From an uncultured Acidobacteriota bacterium (GTDB lineage Bacteria > Acidobacteriota > Vicinamibacteria > Vicinamibacterales > 2-12-FULL-66-21), in assembly GCA_963730995.1 (NCBI GenBank), contig CAVSUB010000013.1:2173167-2237166 (forward strand): a stretch of 64,000 nucleotides of DNA. The letters are read 5' to 3'. Position numbers and translations under genes: made by a program. Below, in pieces: positions 1-60,731 of this stretch (its first letter is position 1; every line of letters begins with the position of its first letter). The notes beneath the pieces were generated by a model, which saw nothing but the letters and a program-made list of their open reading frames with translations, searched no databases and had not been told where the DNA came from.

Positions 1-118
1 ACGCAAACGCGGGATTCTGGCGCGCGTGGCCTTCGACCAGCGCTCTGGTGTCGGCTGACGCTTCACCCGCAAGGTACAGCGTAAGCAGATCGTCCATCAC
101 CTCGTCGGTTAGCTTCAT
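1..118 (-). CDS. Anti-sigma factor, N-terminal part; the gene runs off the window edge.
   Basis: The reverse complement of 1..118 translates as MKLTDEVMDDLLTLYLAGEASADTRALVEGHARQNPAF. This matches the anti-sigma N-terminal pattern (zf-HC2-like, but lacking the Cys pair). Its ATG at 118..116 overlaps the stop of the upstream ECF sigma gene as ATGA, which is typical sigma/anti-sigma coupling. Confidence 0.55.
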   Translation of the reverse strand, partial: MKLTDEVMDDLLTLYLAGEASADTRALVEGHARQNPAFA

Positions 119-597
119 TGCGATCTCCCTGGCGACTCCGTGGCCGCCGCTATGAGTTTGAGACGCGCCCGGTGGACCCGGATCTTCACGGTGTTGACGG
201 CAATTCCGATCAGCCGCCCGATCTCCTCGTACTCGACGCCAATCGCCGCCAGCATCAAGGGCTCTCGGTACTCGATCGGAAGCGCGCGAATCGCGTCGAG
301 CGTGCGGCGCAACTCGATCCTGGCCTCGGCATTCGGCGTGACGACCTGGTCGGGCACCTGCGCGTCCGGCCAGCGGCTGGCGAACCGTCCTCGGTCATGG
401 GCGAGATTCCGGGCGATCGCGAGCAGGTAGGCCTTCGCGGTCTCCACCCGGATCCGGTCGCGGCCCACCCACGCGCGCAGAAACGTCTCGGATGTGATCT
501 CTGCAGCGGCGTCGTCGCTCGCCGTCAGGGAGCGCGCGAACCTGTAGACGTCCTTCGCATGCGCTTCGTAGAGACTGTGAAATGCCGTGCCGTGCAT
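115..597 (-). CDS. RNA polymerase ECF (sigma-70 family) sigma factor.
   Basis: The 160-aa ORF has sigma-70 region 2 (FLRAW...DRIR) and region 4 (IEYREPLMLAAIGVEYEEIGRLIGIAVNTVKIRVHRARLKL) signatures. Its TGA stop overlaps the downstream anti-sigma start. Confidence 0.9.
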   Translation of the reverse strand: MHGTAFHSLYEAHAKDVYRFARSLTASDDAAAEITSETFLRAWVGRDRIRVETAKAYLLAIARNLAHDRGRFASRWPDAQVPDQVVTPNAEARIELRRTLDAIRALPIEYREPLMLAAIGVEYEEIGRLIGIAVNTVKIRVHRARLKLIAAATESPGRSQ

Positions 598-2946: not shown

Positions 2947-3159
2947 CTAATCGCCGACGACAGCGGGTCCCGTTGCCGGCTTTCCGCATTTCAATTCCGT
3001 CCACTTGTGCCCGCATGCGATGCACCGATAGTAAATCTGCATCGACGTTCGGAGCGTGATCTGAGCCATGTCCTCGGTGCAGGCAGGGCAATGAGGCTCC
3101 GGAGAGCGAGCCGTCGCGCGTCGGTCGAATGAGGGCGACACGGGAATCATAGGCGCCAT
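2947..3159 (-). CDS. Small zinc-ribbon protein with CPAC-X17-CIAC; start uncertain.
   Basis: The ORF encodes ...HCPACTEDMAQITLRTSMQIYYRCIACGHKWTELKCGK, a four-cysteine CxxC...CxxC knuckle pair. It lies directly downstream of the ECF41 sigma gene on the same strand. Confidence 0.35.
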   Translation of the reverse strand: MAPMIPVSPSFDRRATARSPEPHCPACTEDMAQITLRTSMQIYYRCIACGHKWTELKCGKPATGPAVVGD

Positions 3160-3286
3160 ACTGTCAGACGACGCTCGGAGTAGCAAACCGCACTCTCTAA
3201 CGGCCTGCTCGGCTTTGATCGGCTCCCGCTGGCTCCTGGCGCTACCGGGCCGCTGCGAGTTGTCGGAGCCATGGCTTCCGGATATC

Positions 3287-4174
3287 TCAGTCTACGGTCG
3301 ACACGTCCAGCGCGCCGAGCCGCGCCGGATCGCCAATGACCTCGATCTCGGTGATCTTGCCGTCCGCGATCTTGAAGGTGAGCGCTCTGGACAATCGTCC
3401 CCGCGACGCCAGCACGACGCCGATGGCCCCATTCACGAGCGCGGGCCGCACGAGCCGCGCGAGGTGCCCGAAGGCGACCGCCTGCTTCGCCCAGACCGCC
3501 GCGCCGCGGACCTCGGCCGGCGCGCCGGACGGGGCCGTCAGGTCGGTGCGAACGACGAGGCCCGGATCGAGGACGGCGAGCAGGCCTTCGAAGTCGCCGC
3601 CGCGTAACGCCGTCAGAAAGACATCGACGACCTCACGCTGCCGAACGAGATCGGGGTCGGACGCTCCCGCGCCGCCGCGCACGCGGCGCCGCGCACGGCT
3701 GGCGAGCTGGCGCGTCGCCTCTGCGGAACGGCCGACGATGGGCGCGATCTCCTCGAACGGCACGGCAAACATGTCGTGCAGCACGAAGGCGAGGCGTTCC
3801 GCCGGCGTCAGCCTGTCGAGCACGACGAGCAGCGCGAGCCCGACAGAATCAGCGAGGACCGCTTCATGCTCGGGGCTGCTCCCGCTCGGGCCGGTTGCGA
3901 TCGGCTCCGGCGCCTGCGGGGCGAACGGCTCCTCGCGCCGCGATTTGCGCGACCGCAGCATGTCGAGGCACACGCGTGCGACGACGGTGGTCAGCCATCC
4001 GCCGAGGTTGTCGATGCCCGTGGTATCGGCGCGGCTGAGTCGCAGCCACGCCTCCTGAACGGCATCGTCCACCTCGCTCGACGAGCCGAGCATCCGATAA
4101 GCCACGGCCCGCAGGTGGGTTCGGTTCTCTTCGAATCGCTCGGCCAGATAGTCGCGTTCGGTCATCGGTGACAC
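3287..4174 (-). CDS. ECF41-type sigma factor (SigJ-like) with a fused C-terminal SnoaL-like regulatory domain.
   Basis: The N-terminal half has sigma-70 regions 2 and 4 (VQEAWLRLSRAD; LTPAERLAFVLHDMFAVPFEEIAPIVGRSAEATRQLASRARRRV). The 100-aa C-terminal extension (VVDVFLTALRGGDFEGLLAVLDP...KITEI) is as in ECF41, and there is no adjacent anti-sigma gene. The start is GTG at 4174 or ATG at 4165. Confidence 0.85.
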   Translation of the reverse strand: MSPMTERDYLAERFEENRTHLRAVAYRMLGSSSEVDDAVQEAWLRLSRADTTGIDNLGGWLTTVVARVCLDMLRSRKSRREEPFAPQAPEPIATGPSGSSPEHEAVLADSVGLALLVVLDRLTPAERLAFVLHDMFAVPFEEIAPIVGRSAEATRQLASRARRRVRGGAGASDPDLVRQREVVDVFLTALRGGDFEGLLAVLDPGLVVRTDLTAPSGAPAEVRGAAVWAKQAVAFGHLARLVRPALVNGAIGVVLASRGRLSRALTFKIADGKITEIEVIGDPARLGALDVSTVD

Positions 4175-4317
4175 TTCCCCTTGCGTTCCGTCATACCGCT
4201 GACGGACGAACGGCGCTCAATGTGACAAGGCGAGTCCGTTGCCGCGATGCTCTCGAACTGCTCTCCGCTAAACAGCAGTCTTCGCTCATCGGTCACATTC
4301 TCCCGCTGCGTTTCGTC
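4167..4317 (+). promoter_or_regulatory. Two tandem ECF41-type promoter motifs, GGTGACA-N15-CGTC and GGTCACA-N16-CGTC, pointing at the VOC gene.
   Basis: Copy 1 is GGTGACA at 4167..4173 and CGTC at 4189..4192. Copy 2 is GGTCACA at 4291..4297 and CGTC at 4314..4317. Both sit inside a roughly 50-bp imperfect direct repeat (4156..4205 and 4281..4332). Copy 2 matches the published ECF41 target consensus TGTCACA-N16-CGTC at 10 of 11 positions and lies about 45 nt upstream of the VOC ATG. Confidence 0.5.
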
Positions 4318-4365
4318 ATCGCAATGACGCGGCCACGCCCGCGAAAATGTACATTAGGAGGAACC

Positions 4366-4758
4366 ATGAAGATCAAATTGACCAGCGTGTACGTCGCCGA
4401 CCAGGAGAAGGCCCTGCGCTTCTATACCGGAGTGCTGGGCTTTGTGAAGAAGGCTGACTTCAGCAAGCCGCCGTTTCGCTGGCTGACGGTGGCCTCACCA
4501 GAGGACCCGGACGGCACGGAGCTGCAGCTGGCGCTCAACGACAACCCGGCGGCCAAAGCCTACCAGCAGGCGATTTTCCAGCAAGGCCAGCCCGCGGCCA
4601 TGTTCTTCACCGACGACGTCCAGGCCGACTACGAGCGGATGAAAGCGCGGGGTGCCGAGTTCACGATGCCACCGACGGACGTGACCGGCTCGAAGATCGC
4701 CATGCTGAACGACACCTGCGGCAATCTCATTCAGGTCACGCAACTGATGCGCTGGTAG
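4366..4758 (+). CDS. VOC (glyoxalase/bleomycin-resistance) family protein.
   Basis: The 130-aa product (MKIKLTSVYVADQEKALRFYTGVLGF...) has the glyoxalase-fold signature. An AGGAGG RBS lies at 4356..4361. Confidence 0.85.
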   Translation: MKIKLTSVYVADQEKALRFYTGVLGFVKKADFSKPPFRWLTVASPEDPDGTELQLALNDNPAAKAYQQAIFQQGQPAAMFFTDDVQADYERMKARGAEFTMPPTDVTGSKIAMLNDTCGNLIQVTQLMRW

Positions 4759-4988
4759 GGCGGACGTTCAGCAGCCTTCCGGGAGCGCTGCTGACTGCAT
4801 ACCCGGCGTTGCTTCCTGGCAAGGCAACGACAGTGACGGCGTTCGTGTGCGGCGGCCGCTTCGAGCACGAGGCCGTCGCGTCACTCCTGCTGGAGCGATC
4901 CATCGCGCTCGATGCCGACATCGGGAAACAGGTCGATTGAAGCCTTGGCCGCCTCGTCTTCGTCAAGTACTTTGGTAGGATTTCGCGC

Positions 4989-5642
4989 ATGGAAATGCAC
5001 GCGCACGTACCGAAACTCGGCAAGACCCTCGGCCATTGGCTGCTCGAGGGACTGTTCATCGTGATCAGCGTGGCTCTGGGCTTTTGGGTAACGCAGGTCC
5101 GCGAAGAGCGCCAGAGTCATGAACTCGCCGCACGCGTGCTGACAGGTCTGCAGGCGGAGATTCAACACAACCTCACGACGGTCGAACCGTTCATTGCCAT
5201 CCAGCAGAAGTGGCTCGATGCGATGGGCAAATTCGGGTCCGCCACAGATCGTCAAACCGACTTCCCCGTCTGCCCGACGTCCTCGACGGCATGTGGCATG
5301 TTCTTCGCCACCCGTCCGGATCTCGGGGAGATCAAAACCAACTTCCCGATCTTCCGCCGGGCCGCGTGGGATACGGCGCTTTCGACAGGGGCGCTGCGGC
5401 TCGTGGATTACGATCTCGCTGCCGGACTGTCCGAGATCTACCAGATGCAGGATCTCTTCAAGAACAACCTGGAGAAGGTTGGCCCGTCTTCCACGGACTG
5501 GTTCGACGCGGCCGCTCGCGATGCGGCAGTTCGCAAGACGTACATGGCAATGGTCGAAGTGCTATACGACGAGCGTCAGCTCCTGCTTCCGCTATATCGC
5601 AAATACCTGCCCCTCATCGCCGCCGCGGTTGGCCAAGGCTGA
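4989..5642 (+). CDS. Hypothetical membrane-anchored protein with an N-terminal transmembrane helix.
   Basis: The 217-aa product has a balanced, protein-like composition (K, N, F, Y, I) that is unlike the GC-driven junk ORFs. One transmembrane helix is predicted (WLLEGLFIVISVALGFWV). Confidence 0.5.
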   Translation: MEMHAHVPKLGKTLGHWLLEGLFIVISVALGFWVTQVREERQSHELAARVLTGLQAEIQHNLTTVEPFIAIQQKWLDAMGKFGSATDRQTDFPVCPTSSTACGMFFATRPDLGEIKTNFPIFRRAAWDTALSTGALRLVDYDLAAGLSEIYQMQDLFKNNLEKVGPSSTDWFDAAARDAAVRKTYMAMVEVLYDERQLLLPLYRKYLPLIAAAVGQG

Positions 5643-5784: not shown

Positions 5785-6210
5785 ATGGTCACGATAGAAC
5801 CGCGGCCGTACGGCGCGGACATGACGCCCGAGGAGCGCGATGCGCTGTTGTCGCGCGTCTACGTCGTCGAGCCGGGGATTGTCTTCTATCGCGAAATCCC
5901 CGTTCAGACGGTGGAGAGCATCGATCTAATGCTCGAACGATTGTACGAACTCGGAAGCCAGTGGCCGACATTTATCGAGGTCCTGGATCTCGCGACGGTC
6001 ACACGGCCCTCTCCTGCCGTACGCGCCGCTATCCGGACATGGATGCTCCGCATCGCGCCGCGGATGACACAAATGTGCGTCATCGTGGAAAAGAACGTCG
6101 TCATCCGAGCAGTCGCGCGGTTCGTCGGGTATTCGATGAACATCAGGAAGGTGTCGTTCCACGAGACGGAGGCGGAGGCGATCGATGTCGCGCGGCGATT
6201 ACGCGCCTGA
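5785..6210 (+). CDS. Hypothetical protein, possibly a STAS-like sensory partner of the adjacent histidine kinase.
   Basis: The 141-aa product (MVTIEPRPYGADMTPEERDALLSRVYV...VLDLATVTRPSPAVRAAIRTWMLRIAPRMTQMCVIVEKNVVIRAV) overlaps the start of the histidine kinase gene by 26 nt, suggesting co-translation. Confidence 0.4.
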   Translation: MVTIEPRPYGADMTPEERDALLSRVYVVEPGIVFYREIPVQTVESIDLMLERLYELGSQWPTFIEVLDLATVTRPSPAVRAAIRTWMLRIAPRMTQMCVIVEKNVVIRAVARFVGYSMNIRKVSFHETEAEAIDVARRLRA

Positions 6211-7132
6211 CCAGGACGGCGTCGTCGCTGAGATCCTGCGGCACCTGGCGGAAATCGGTGCCGGGCGTACCAGCATCACCGACGACGACCTCGCGAACGC
6301 TCCCACTGACGTCATGCGGGAACTGCTGGTCGGACTGCTGACACTGCATGAAGACCTGCAGTACGAGCAGGGCCTGCGAGCCGTCGCGGAGCAGCAGTCC
6401 GACCGGCTGGTCGCAGACCTGCGCGCCGCGGTGACGGCGCGAGACGAATTCCTGTCGATTGCATCACACGAGTTGCGCACTCCGCTGAGCACGCTCAGGT
6501 TGCAGACGGCCGGTCTCGCACGCTGGCTGTCTCAGGCGTCGCTGCCCGAGCATGAGCCCCACCTCCTGAAGCACTTCGCGGTCATCGACCGGCAAGTCGC
6601 GAGGCTGGAGAAGCTCACGACCGAGCTGCTCGACGTGAGCCGTATCACGTCGGGGCGCCTCGAGTTGCATCGCGAGCACTTCGATCTCGTGGTACTCGTT
6701 CGTGAGATAGTCGAGCGGTTCCGCGCCGACCAGGCGCGAGGTTCATCGCCCATCGTGTTCGAGAGCGCTCCGAGTGTCGTCGGCGAATGGGATCCCTTCC
6801 GGATCGACCAGGTCGCGTCGAACCTGGTCGTCAACGCCATTCGCTACGGCGAAGGCAAGCCGGTCCACGTGTCGGTGCACGCTGTGGACGACGCGGCGCG
6901 ACTCATCGTGCGCGATGAGGGCATCGGCATTGCTGCCGACCACAAGGAGCGAATCTTCGAACGATTCGAACGGGCGGTGTCGTCGTCGAACTACGGCGGC
7001 CTGGGATTGGGCCTCTGGATTGCGAGGCGGGTCGTCGACGCTCACGATGGCGCCATCGACGTCGACAGCGAGCCCGGGCTGGGAGCCACGTTTACGGTGA
7101 CGCTGCCGCTCCCGACGCGGGGCTCTGGATAG
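6185..7132 (+). CDS. Sensor histidine kinase (HisKA + HATPase_c), soluble, with no transmembrane or known sensor domain.
   Basis: The H-box SIASHELRTPLSTL and the N, G1, G2 boxes (NAIRYGEG, DEGIGIA, GGLGLGLWIAR) are present. Confidence 0.9.
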   Translation: MSRGDYAPDQDGVVAEILRHLAEIGAGRTSITDDDLANAPTDVMRELLVGLLTLHEDLQYEQGLRAVAEQQSDRLVADLRAAVTARDEFLSIASHELRTPLSTLRLQTAGLARWLSQASLPEHEPHLLKHFAVIDRQVARLEKLTTELLDVSRITSGRLELHREHFDLVVLVREIVERFRADQARGSSPIVFESAPSVVGEWDPFRIDQVASNLVVNAIRYGEGKPVHVSVHAVDDAARLIVRDEGIGIAADHKERIFERFERAVSSSNYGGLGLGLWIARRVVDAHDGAIDVDSEPGLGATFTVTLPLPTRGSG

Positions 7133-7138
7133 GCGGGC

Positions 7139-7519
7139 ATGACAAAAGCACGCGTCACGGTCATCGAAGACGACAGCGACCTCCGCGAGGCGATCTGCGT
7201 GATGCTCCGCTACGAAGGATACGAGGCCTCTGGCTTCTCCAACGCGAGGGAGGCCATCCATCGGCTCGAAGGCGGGCATCAGTCGGATGTAATCCTGCTC
7301 GACCTGATGATGCCGGTCATGAACGGCTGGGAGTTCTGCGAATACCGCGCGGAGGCGGCCGCGCTGGCCAGAGTGCCTGTGATCGTCATCACCGCCAGAC
7401 GAGCGGTGACGCCGCCACGCGGCGTCAGCGACGTCCTGCTGAAGCCGTTCGACGCCGACGAGTTGTACGACGCGATCAACAAGGTCCTCCCGGGATCGCC
7501 GGTGACGGACGGCCGGTAG
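7139..7519 (+). CDS. Single-domain response regulator (CheY-like receiver).
   Basis: The 126-aa product has the VIEDD...DVILLDLMMPVMNGWEF...LLKPF receiver signature. It follows the histidine kinase after a 6-nt gap. Confidence 0.9.
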   Translation: MTKARVTVIEDDSDLREAICVMLRYEGYEASGFSNAREAIHRLEGGHQSDVILLDLMMPVMNGWEFCEYRAEAAALARVPVIVITARRAVTPPRGVSDVLLKPFDADELYDAINKVLPGSPVTDGR

Positions 7520-59702: not shown

Positions 59703-60731
59703 ATGATAGAAATGCACTACATGCAGAATGTTCTCCGCGCTTTTAGTCTCGCTCTCATTTCCGTCGTCGGGCTCGGCCGGATCGTGGGTGCCCAGAACCC
59801 CTCTCCTCCTTCGCCTGCGTGGGCCTACGGCTTCCCGCCCCTGGCCGATGACCAACCGGCCGTGAGCGGAACCCCCGCCCCCGCTGCGACGCCGGCGCGT
59901 CCACCGGACACGTCGCTCAAGCGAATCCCGGGCAGCTCCAAGGAGTTCACGCTGGCGCACATCCGGGACTATTGGGACGTCGGCGACTGGTTTCCCGAGG
60001 ACCACCCGCCGATGCCCAGCGTGGTCGTCCACGGTCGTCAGCCGCACGTACGAGGCTGCGCGATGTGTCACATGCCGAACGGCAAAGGGCGGCCGGAAAA
60101 CGCTCCGATTGCGGGTCAGTCGTACGCCTATATCCTTCAGCAGCTGACAGACTTCAAGAACGGCCTGCGCGCGAGCGCCGATCCTCGGAAGCTCAACACC
60201 ACTCAGATGATCGAAGCCGCGAAGGACATGACGGACGATGAGATGAAAGCGGCCTCTGAGTATTTCTCGTCGATGAAGTGGACGCCGTGGATCCGCGTCG
60301 TCGAGGCCGCGGACGTGCCGAAGACGCGGCTCTCCGGCAACGTGTTCATGCCTCTAGCCGAAGGCGGCACAGAGCCCCTCGGCAATCGCATCGTCGAATC
60401 ACCGGAGAGTGCCGAGCGCTTCGAGCTTCGCGATCCGCGCTCGGGCTTCATCGCCTACGTTCCACCCGGCAGCCTTCAGAAGGGCGCGGCGCTCGTGGCG
60501 AGCGGCGGTGGCAAGACGACGCCATGCGGCGTCTGTCACGGCACCGACTTGAACGGCCTGGGCCCGGTCCCTGCGATCGCCGGGAGATCGCCGAGCTATC
60601 TCGTGCGCCAGATGTACGACATGCAGCAGGGCACCCGCAAGGGCGCGTGGTCTCCGCTGATGAAGCCTGTCGTGGCGAATCTGACGCAAGACGACATGCT
60701 GGCTATCGCAGCGTACGTGGCGTCACGCTGA
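59703..60731 (+). CDS. Di-haem c-type cytochrome, secreted.
   Basis: A signal peptide is followed by two CxxCH motifs (CAMCH and CGVCH), each followed by a Met-containing segment. Alternative starts are at 59712 and 59721. Confidence 0.8.
   Translation: MIEMHYMQNVLRAFSLALISVVGLGRIVGAQNPSPPSPAWAYGFPPLADDQPAVSGTPAPAATPARPPDTSLKRIPGSSKEFTLAHIRDYWDVGDWFPEDHPPMPSVVVHGRQPHVRGCAMCHMPNGKGRPENAPIAGQSYAYILQQLTDFKNGLRASADPRKLNTTQMIEAAKDMTDDEMKAASEYFSSMKWTPWIRVVEAADVPKTRLSGNVFMPLAEGGTEPLGNRIVESPESAERFELRDPRSGFIAYVPPGSLQKGAALVASGGGKTTPCGVCHGTDLNGLGPVPAIAGRSPSYLVRQMYDMQQGTRKGAWSPLMKPVVANLTQDDMLAIAAYVASR

Follow-up and report, generated by a model that had tools for sequence, protein, structure and literature searches.

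In a 64-kb stretch of DNA from an uncultured Acidobacteriota bacterium (contig CAVSUB010000013.1 of assembly GCA_963730995.1, positions 2,173,167 to 2,237,166; hereafter the window), an ECF41-like sigma factor gene on the minus strand and a divergent gene of the VOC (glyoxalase-fold) family on the plus strand are separated by a spacer of 200 bp. We propose that this spacer holds a duplicated two-way promoter cassette whose copies have probably decayed in a complementary manner, such that the copy next to the sigma gene keeps the sigma promoter and the copy next to the VOC gene keeps the VOC promoter. ECF41 is among the most widespread groups of alternative sigma factors, and we know of no signal or physiological role that has been assigned to it. 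The two genes are located as follows.

3287..4165, minus strand: ECF41-like sigma factor gene, 292 aa from the ATG at 4165 (Pfam, NCBIfam and structure match)
4366..4758, plus strand: VOC/glyoxalase-fold gene, 130 aa (Pfam and structure match)

Promoter motifs and a direct repeat in the spacer

The ECF41 promoter TGTCACA-N16-CGTC was validated by 5'-RACE (rapid amplification of cDNA ends) and reporter assays in two species (Wecke et al. 2012, PMC3426412). The strict form GTCACA-N16-CGTC occurs twice in the 64-kb window, against 0.33 matches expected; both matches lie inside the spacer and on opposite strands, and no further strict motif that could indicate a regulon is present elsewhere in the window. 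The first, a perfect TGTCACA-N16-CGTC on the minus strand (4227..4201), is aimed at the sigma gene and is the best match of the region, but was overlooked in an earlier reading made from the letters alone (the sequence-only reading). The second is an exact GGTCACA-N16-CGTC on the plus strand (4291-4317). That reading had described it as a copy with a perfect spacer and CGTC, placing a transcription start about 40 nt before the VOC ATG, and the description holds; we regard this motif as a very good candidate for an ECF41-dependent promoter of the VOC gene. The arrangement TGTCACA-N16(+/-1)-CGTC, which is expected before an ECF41 sigma gene and/or its partner, is found before both genes. Relaxed matches of the form GTCAC-N-[CGT]GTC are found at 12 additional positions in the window, counted irrespective of gene starts. 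No sigma-70-like promoter was found in 4100-4900.

The spacer also contains a direct repeat of approximately 50 bp, as had been noticed before. Positions 4157-4204 align with 4281-4329 with 40 of 46 aligned bases identical and three gaps, and the local score of 43 compares with 14.4 +/- 2.2 in shuffled sequences, none of 2000 shuffles having reached 43. The ungapped core of the repeat (4176-4204 and 4301-4329) is 76% identical. An inverted duplication was considered and rejected: copy 1 aligns with the reverse complement of copy 2 over a 16-nt central dyad only (score 17, versus 43 in direct orientation).

A 62-bp two-way cassette in related loci

For comparison, we fetched 80 genomic loci carrying relatives of the sigma factor (58-85% identity; Acidobacteriota, Actinomycetota, Chloroflexota and Alphaproteobacteria) and 80 metagenomic loci carrying relatives of the VOC protein (85-92% identity); the loci are labelled L001-L160, with the VOC relatives as L081-L160. 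In many of the sigma-relative loci a fixed 62-bp pseudo-palindrome stands directly before the sigma start, with the layout TGTCACA-N16-CGTCA-N6-TGACG-N16-TGTGACC-g-ATG. Read towards the sigma gene, this cassette is the published ECF41 promoter; read on the opposite strand, it is GGTCACA-N16-CGTC, the -35 element of which abuts the sigma ATG and which points to the divergent partner. The complete two-way pattern is present at 25 distinct sites in 844 kb of fetched related loci, always with a length of 62-63 bp.

A cassette profile (nhmmer) was built from 16 related cassettes, and a locus was counted at E < 1e-3. It matches 43 of the 80 sigma-relative loci, in 36 of which the match abuts the sigma start, and exactly two sites in the window (4227..4169 and 4341..4291). 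All four elements are conserved across the 56 unique cassettes on which the column counts are based (consensus tGTCACATcggcngggttTcgtnCGTCActgcnATGACGgaacgCGACGgggGAATGTGACC), and the cassette occurs in all four phylogenetic groups, Acidobacteriota, Actinomycetota, Chloroflexota and Alphaproteobacteria.

The position of the partner genes bears on the function of the opposite-strand motif. In compact loci the partner start codon lies only 12-42 nt past the cassette, and in three loci (L148, L134 and L098) the entire VOC-to-sigma spacer measures 77 bp; any partner promoter must therefore lie inside the cassette. GGTCACA-N16-CGTC persists upstream of the VOC gene in several VOC loci whose sigma-directed half has degenerated, among them L082 and L112, where the genes are co-directional and no sigma start codon is nearby. 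Because of this retention, the motif appears to be kept for the VOC gene and not as part of a sigma leader, and the opposite-strand motif is likely a real promoter.

The same loci weigh on a second explanation, in which the segment from the -10 element to the sigma ATG is an RNA-level element for translation or stability of the sigma leader and the likeness to an opposed promoter is a by-product of the near-palindromic -35. This segment holds the ribosome-binding site, falls within the predicted 27-nt leader and is present even in L025, L079 and L024, which have no recognised divergent partner. On the other hand, the motif is also kept before VOC genes away from sigma starts (L082, L112 and the second copy in the window), the distance from TGTGACC to CGTC is held at 16 as a promoter requires, and no Rfam family matches 3900-4900 at E <= 1. 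We consider an RNA-level element the least probable of the explanations weighed here.

Scarcely more probable is that the dyads CGTCA-N6-TGACG (4189-4204 and 4314-4329 in the window), together with the GCGTTCsGTCATCG family, are operators of an unidentified dimeric repressor or activator, with the promoter match being secondary. Each copy does contain a clear inverted repeat, the two dyads are 81% complementary, the 14-nt family is present four times, and the A after CGTC and the flanking ATGACGG are conserved beyond what a bare 4-nt -10 element would need. However, two opposed -10 elements, each exactly 16 nt from GTCAC, account fully for the dyad and match an experimentally validated promoter of this sigma group, whereas a simple operator model leaves both the outer arms and the constant length of 62 bp without a role. 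No other regulator gene is conserved beside these loci.

Two variations of the cassette were observed among the relatives. In many of them, GGTC/TGTC-type -10 elements (GGGTCA...ATGACAC) replace CGTC within the same 62-bp cassette; this systematic -10 variant is seen in L013, L015, L018, L021, L026, L060, L078, L079 and others at about 2938-2999, mostly next to NAD-binding partners. In L001 (2840-3000) and L101, approximately 130-155 nt are inserted between the cassette and the sigma ATG, with a GC-rich hairpin at the end of the insert (GGGGCGAAGCCCC). The L001 insert contains a 52-codon upstream open reading frame (ORF) whose stop overlaps the sigma ATG (ATGA), and in L048 a comparable insert of 83 nt carries an upstream ORF of 16 codons. 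These inserts might encode a leader peptide, provide translational coupling or represent noise.

Complementary decay of the two copies in the window

The two cassette copies in the window and their elements are listed below.

4166..4227: cassette on the sigma side (copy 1; 61 bp and the g that precedes the ATG), with the promoter elements intact towards the sigma gene and decayed towards the VOC gene (nhmmer 4227..4169, E 4.3e-10, model positions 1-60; alignment with relatives)
4221..4227, minus strand: -35 element TGTCACA of the sigma gene's own putative promoter (exact pattern match)
4201..4204, minus strand: -10 element CGTC of the putative sigma promoter (motif match)
4174..4182, minus strand: ribosome-binding site AAGGGGAAG of the sigma gene (from sequence; relatives have GGAGGAA/GGGAA in that position)
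4167..4192, plus strand: GGTGACA-N15-CGTC, a remnant of the partner-directed promoter, whose homologue in relatives is the GGTCACA-N16-CGTC adjoining the sigma ATG (copy 1 of the sequence-only reading)
4280..4289, minus strand: vestigial sigma start cgATGAGCGAAG (cgATGAGCGAA after copy 2; matches the true start in L001)
4291..4353: cassette on the VOC side (copy 2), with the promoter elements intact towards the VOC gene and decayed towards the sigma gene (nhmmer 4341..4291, E 4.6e-8, model positions 12-62; alignment)
4291..4297, plus strand: -35 element GGTCACA of the putative VOC promoter (exact pattern match)
4314..4317, plus strand: -10 element CGTC of the putative VOC promoter (motif match)
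4326..4353, minus strand: relic of the sigma-directed promoter in copy 2, with CGTC at 4329..4326 and the -35 reduced to TGTACA at 4353..4348
4356..4361, plus strand: ribosome-binding site AGGAGG of the VOC gene (from sequence)

Start positions were placed by mapped ECF41 starts, which lie about 9 nt after CGTC (PMC3426412, PMC6180224). Transcription of the sigma gene is predicted to start near 4192 on the minus strand, leaving a 5' untranslated region of about 27 nt, and transcription of the VOC gene near 4326 on the plus strand, with a 5' untranslated region of about 40 nt. The putative VOC promoter stands 48 nt from the VOC ATG, compared with about 50 nt in single-cassette loci.

In copy 1, the partner-directed half carries two lesions relative to the close relative L084, namely a change of the central -35 base (position 4170) and a 1-nt deletion in the spacer. 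In sigma sense, the central base is G in 53 of the 56 cassettes and C in none of them, and the window has C. In copy 2, the position of the sigma-directed relic is decayed in other ways in L084, L124, L160 and L082.

The sequence-only reading had interpreted the repeat as two tandem ECF41 promoters aimed at the VOC gene and had given copy 1 as GGTCACA. Copy 1 is in fact GGTGACA-N15-CGTC (4167-4192), deviating in the central -35 base and in spacer length, so that of the two sites in the same orientation only one agrees with the functional consensus; what is repeated is a cassette with two opposed promoter motifs, and copy 1 of that reading is one decayed half. It is still conceivable that both plus-strand motifs are active, which would provide the VOC gene with a pair of ECF41-dependent promoters and, from the distal motif, with a leader of about 165 nt. 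CGTC and five of the seven -35 bases are retained in copy 1, its spacer of 15 falls within the published 16 +/- 1, and L084, which has the same two-cassette layout, carries an intact GGTCACA-N16-CGTC at this place, making tandem VOC-directed promoters plausible in the lineage. From its motifs, the tandem picture would indeed hold in L084, but not in the window, where the sigma-proximal VOC-directed motif is no longer intact. Against tandem activity in the window stand the central -35 base that is absent from all 56 related cassettes, the spacer deletion, and the low specificity of GTGACA-N15-CGTC, a relaxed form that recurs at 60515-60539; in addition, polymerase at copy 1 would compete with the perfect sigma-directed promoter of the same cassette. 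We therefore regard tandem VOC promoters in the window as unlikely, and as the foremost of the competing explanations.

Arrangements that are parallel to that of the window, or intermediate, are seen among the relatives. L084 has two cassettes, the sigma-proximal one of which is still complete, L002 has three partial cassettes, and partial duplications are present in L010, L090, L114, L117 and L146. In L074, one cassette adjoins the carboxymuconolactone decarboxylase (CMD) gene, and the sigma gene is flanked by a half cassette that carries the sigma direction alone.

The vestigial start after copy 2 resembles the beginning of the sigma gene in L001 (ATGAGCGAACGC). The possibility that the whole inter-cassette segment is a decayed 5' coding region of the sigma gene was tried and rejected, as only ATGA-CGAA matches and the score of 13 equals that of shuffled sequences (12.9 +/- 2.2).

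The sigma factor

The sigma protein contains Sigma70_r2 (residues 11-75) and Sigma70_r4_2/r4 (residues 111-163), i.e., regions 2 and 4 alone; regions 1 and 3 were not found with Pfam. About 127 residues follow region 4, in keeping with the extension of about 100 aa (SnoaL_2/NTF2-like) that characterizes ECF41. The closest solved structure is SigJ of M. tuberculosis (5XE7, E 7.7e-44), with residues 9-254 aligned and the match extending into the C-terminal domain. Among the NCBIfam models, SigJ, SigI and TIGR02957 align end to end with the protein; SigJ (NF007214) matches over the full length at 243.9 bits, under its cutoff of 271, and TIGR02957, also full length, at 212.7 bits, under its cutoff of 323.25. 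The linker between regions 2 and 4 is FAPQAPEPIATG, which keeps PEP but has QA in place of the WL of WLPEP, whereas SigJ has TWLPEPVVTG at the aligned position. The assignment to ECF41 thus derives from these sub-cutoff best matches together with the promoter motif.

A GTG at 4174 had previously been taken as the sigma start codon. The ATG at 4165 is most likely the start instead, because GTGACCG-ATG is conserved in relatives and their protein alignments begin at that methionine. The sequence-only reading noted that group ECF41 uses no anti-sigma factor, and no conserved anti-sigma neighbour was found here: the ORFs flanking the two genes (2947-3186, 4989-5642 and 1651-2757) have no counterparts in the 160 related loci.

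Proposed mechanism and its weak points

In the ancestral state that we envisage, one 62-bp cassette with two opposed ECF41 promoters would have directly preceded the sigma start codon. This cassette, along with the first codons of the sigma gene, would then have been duplicated in tandem, the copies lying about 124 bp apart. Subsequently, copy 1 would have kept the sigma promoter while its partner-directed half was disabled by the central -35 change and the 1-nt spacer deletion, and copy 2 would have kept the VOC promoter while its sigma-directed -35 lost one base. The outcome would be two separate back-to-back promoters 64 bp apart, which no longer compete for one stretch of DNA.

RNA polymerase with an ECF41 sigma factor could bind the cassette in either orientation. 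In a complete cassette, the predicted starts are 9-10 bp apart and each falls over the -10 element of the opposite promoter; therefore, one binding event should exclude the other. Such a cassette would couple auto-activation of the sigma gene to the expression of one partner enzyme. In the window, auto-activation of the sigma gene and activation of the VOC gene would proceed at separate sites, and the input signal would presumably be sensed via the fused C-terminal domain, which has been proposed as the signal sensor of ECF41 and SigJ (PMC3426412, PMC5766207).

Several points weigh against this interpretation. We infer the firing of the motifs, their dependence on this particular sigma factor, the start sites and mutual exclusion, and promoter activity in either direction is deduced from sequence alone. 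The cassette profile was seeded with units picked for intact GTCAC/GTGAC (-35) elements, so that conservation at these elements is somewhat inflated, and the stretch from the -35 relic to the sigma ATG has a further role in sigma translation, which could explain a part of its conservation. In the window, copy 1 may keep weak VOC-directed activity, given that a spacer of 15 is within the published range of 16 +/- 1. The similarity of the inter-cassette segment to sigma coding sequence is not significant past about 9 nt, and none to L084 is significant; the boundaries of the duplication are uncertain because the segment cannot be aligned with significance to either. Concerning the sigma factor, NF007214 and TIGR02957 are its best matches by far, yet both are sub-threshold, Pfam SnoaL models do not match the protein at E <= 0.01, and it could be a member of one of the neighbouring groups that have SnoaL-like extensions (ECF294, ECF295 or ECF56).

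The VOC gene and the range of partner genes

The VOC protein matches the Pfam Glyoxalase family (PF00903, E 4.8e-19), and the nearest solved structure is 4G6X, an uncharacterised member of the glyoxalase/bleomycin-resistance family from structural genomics (E 1.8e-35). ECF41 sigma genes are expected to have an adjacent gene for a CMD, an oxidoreductase or an epimerase, but the neighbour in the window is a VOC gene. The sequence-only reading had called this a variation on the theme of ECF41 partners, and a VOC target does lie outside the published set. Its mention of YCII as an ECF41 partner is not supported; in the literature consulted, this association is a trait of ECF42 (PMC6180224). Our literature search found no paper that pairs ECF41 with a glyoxalase-fold gene; the sole related match was ECF56, which has a different promoter.

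Partner genes were classed via tblastn with reference proteins and by clustering with Pfam, which left several neighbours unclassified; calling the longest ORF of the upstream neighbours was abandoned as unreliable in GC-rich loci. An ECF41-like sigma gene stands next to the VOC gene, divergently or co-directionally, in about 13 of the 80 VOC metagenome loci. L001, the closest genomic relative, also pairs a sigma gene with a VOC gene, and in L031 the gene paired with the sigma relative encodes a different VOC protein. Other partners of the sigma subfamily are CMD (11 loci), NAD-binding epimerase-like proteins (18 loci), zinc-dependent alcohol dehydrogenase (Zn-ADH), flavin reductase and old yellow enzyme (OYE). 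The majority of the close VOC relatives have no linked sigma gene, and the ECF41 cassette occurs in only 16 of the 80 loci of VOC relatives. The VOC gene seems to have been placed under ECF41 control in some lineages only.

Two further observations concern these genes. The 130-aa VOC protein is unusually conserved (85-92% identity) over many soil metagenome contigs with unrelated neighbourhoods. L001 contains a second ECF41-like sigma gene (1375-2310; 53% identical) on the far side of its VOC gene, with a partial cassette of its own upstream, the partner-directed half of which is intact.

Comparison with known systems

The window resembles the divergent <ECF< >COE> loci of ECF41 (PMC3426412) in that the sigma factor has a fused C-terminal regulatory domain, no anti-sigma gene is present and a single adjacent target is transcribed divergently, with TGTCACA-N16-CGTC before both genes. 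Among 55 divergent ECF41 loci, the motif was found before the sigma gene in 36 and before the partner in 41 (PMC3426412). Different from these loci, the two promoters of the window belong to two separate cassette copies rather than to one. The overlapping pseudo-palindromic 62-bp geometry is not described in that study, where "overlap" refers to structural genes, and our literature search found no paper that links ECF41 to bidirectional promoters or describes the cassette geometry.

An analogy to the cassette is provided by the bidirectional sigma-70 promoters (Warman et al., PMC12825309), in which a near-symmetric short DNA segment likewise engages RNA polymerase in either direction and one binding event excludes the other, as we propose for the cassette. 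Start spacings of 10, 18 or 23 bp are common there, compared with the 9-10 bp predicted for the cassette, and at pseudo-symmetric sigma-70 promoters of E. coli competition appears once one direction is strongly activated, and a better -35 element in one direction lowers the transcript of the other (PMC12825309). The sigma-70 promoters are read by the housekeeping sigma factor and have a single symmetric -10 hexamer common to both directions, whereas in the cassette two separate CGTC elements lie 8 bp from each other and both -35 elements are near-palindromic; the cassette would be specific to one alternative sigma factor, which is itself one of its two products. A near-symmetric segment with elements for both orientations is found in the relatives (the 25 complete sites), while each copy in the window has lost one orientation.

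ECF56 sigma factors (SigG-type; bioRxiv 10.1101/2020.01.30.927608) share with the window an NTF2/SnoaL-like extension and small glyoxalase-fold targets whose substrate is unknown. Their promoter, CGATGAGTT-N14-GGTC, differs from the ECF41-type motif of the window, and unlike ECF56 the sigma protein of the window matches SigJ/SigI-type models over its full length.

Flanking observations

On the minus strand, 100 bp downstream of the sigma gene, a 79-aa ORF (2947-3186) contains two CxxC pairs and has weak, sub-cutoff zinc-ribbon matches in Pfam. As none of the 160 related loci has this ORF, a partnership with the sigma factor is unlikely. A second, conventional ECF sigma gene (115-597, minus strand) encodes a protein of 160 aa with regions 2 and 4 and no extension, for which no specific NCBIfam family scored above cutoff. 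By translation alone, adjacent ORFs at 6185-7519 (plus strand) resemble a histidine kinase (SHELRTPL, GLGLGL) and a receiver-only response regulator. Just past the VOC stop codon, an 8-bp GC-rich hairpin without a T-run (4768-4794, plus strand; TCAGCAGC ... GCTGCTGA, 11-nt loop) may mark the end of a monocistronic VOC transcript; it was not called by the terminator scan.

Significance

The presence of an ECF41 motif before both genes of a divergent locus has already been published and is, as such, an ordinary finding. The literature that we found has no precedent for the pairing with a VOC gene, for the conservation of a two-way cassette of 62 bp, or for the duplication of this cassette followed by complementary decay. 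A more general proposal, to which we give an even chance, is that the 62-bp pseudo-palindrome is a dedicated bidirectional promoter of an alternative sigma factor, which has a fixed geometry, moves between partners (CMD, epimerase-like, Zn-ADH, flavin reductase, OYE and VOC) and forces an either/or choice between the sigma factor and the effector enzyme, a constraint that would have been escaped repeatedly by tandem duplication and complementary loss. If this is true, the window would represent a clean end state and L084 an intermediate, and the process would be a subfunctionalisation of a promoter rather than of a gene.

The approximately 13 sigma-linked VOC loci and the 16 cassette-bearing ones point to small detoxification-type enzymes as the usual cargo of the cassette, which could also serve as a compact, orthogonal two-way part for engineered gene circuits. 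The interlocked promoters that end at the sigma start predict that auto-activation and expression of the target compete. Cassettes in the single, duplicated and resolved state, with the window among them, would form a natural series for the splitting of an overlapping two-way promoter into independent ones.

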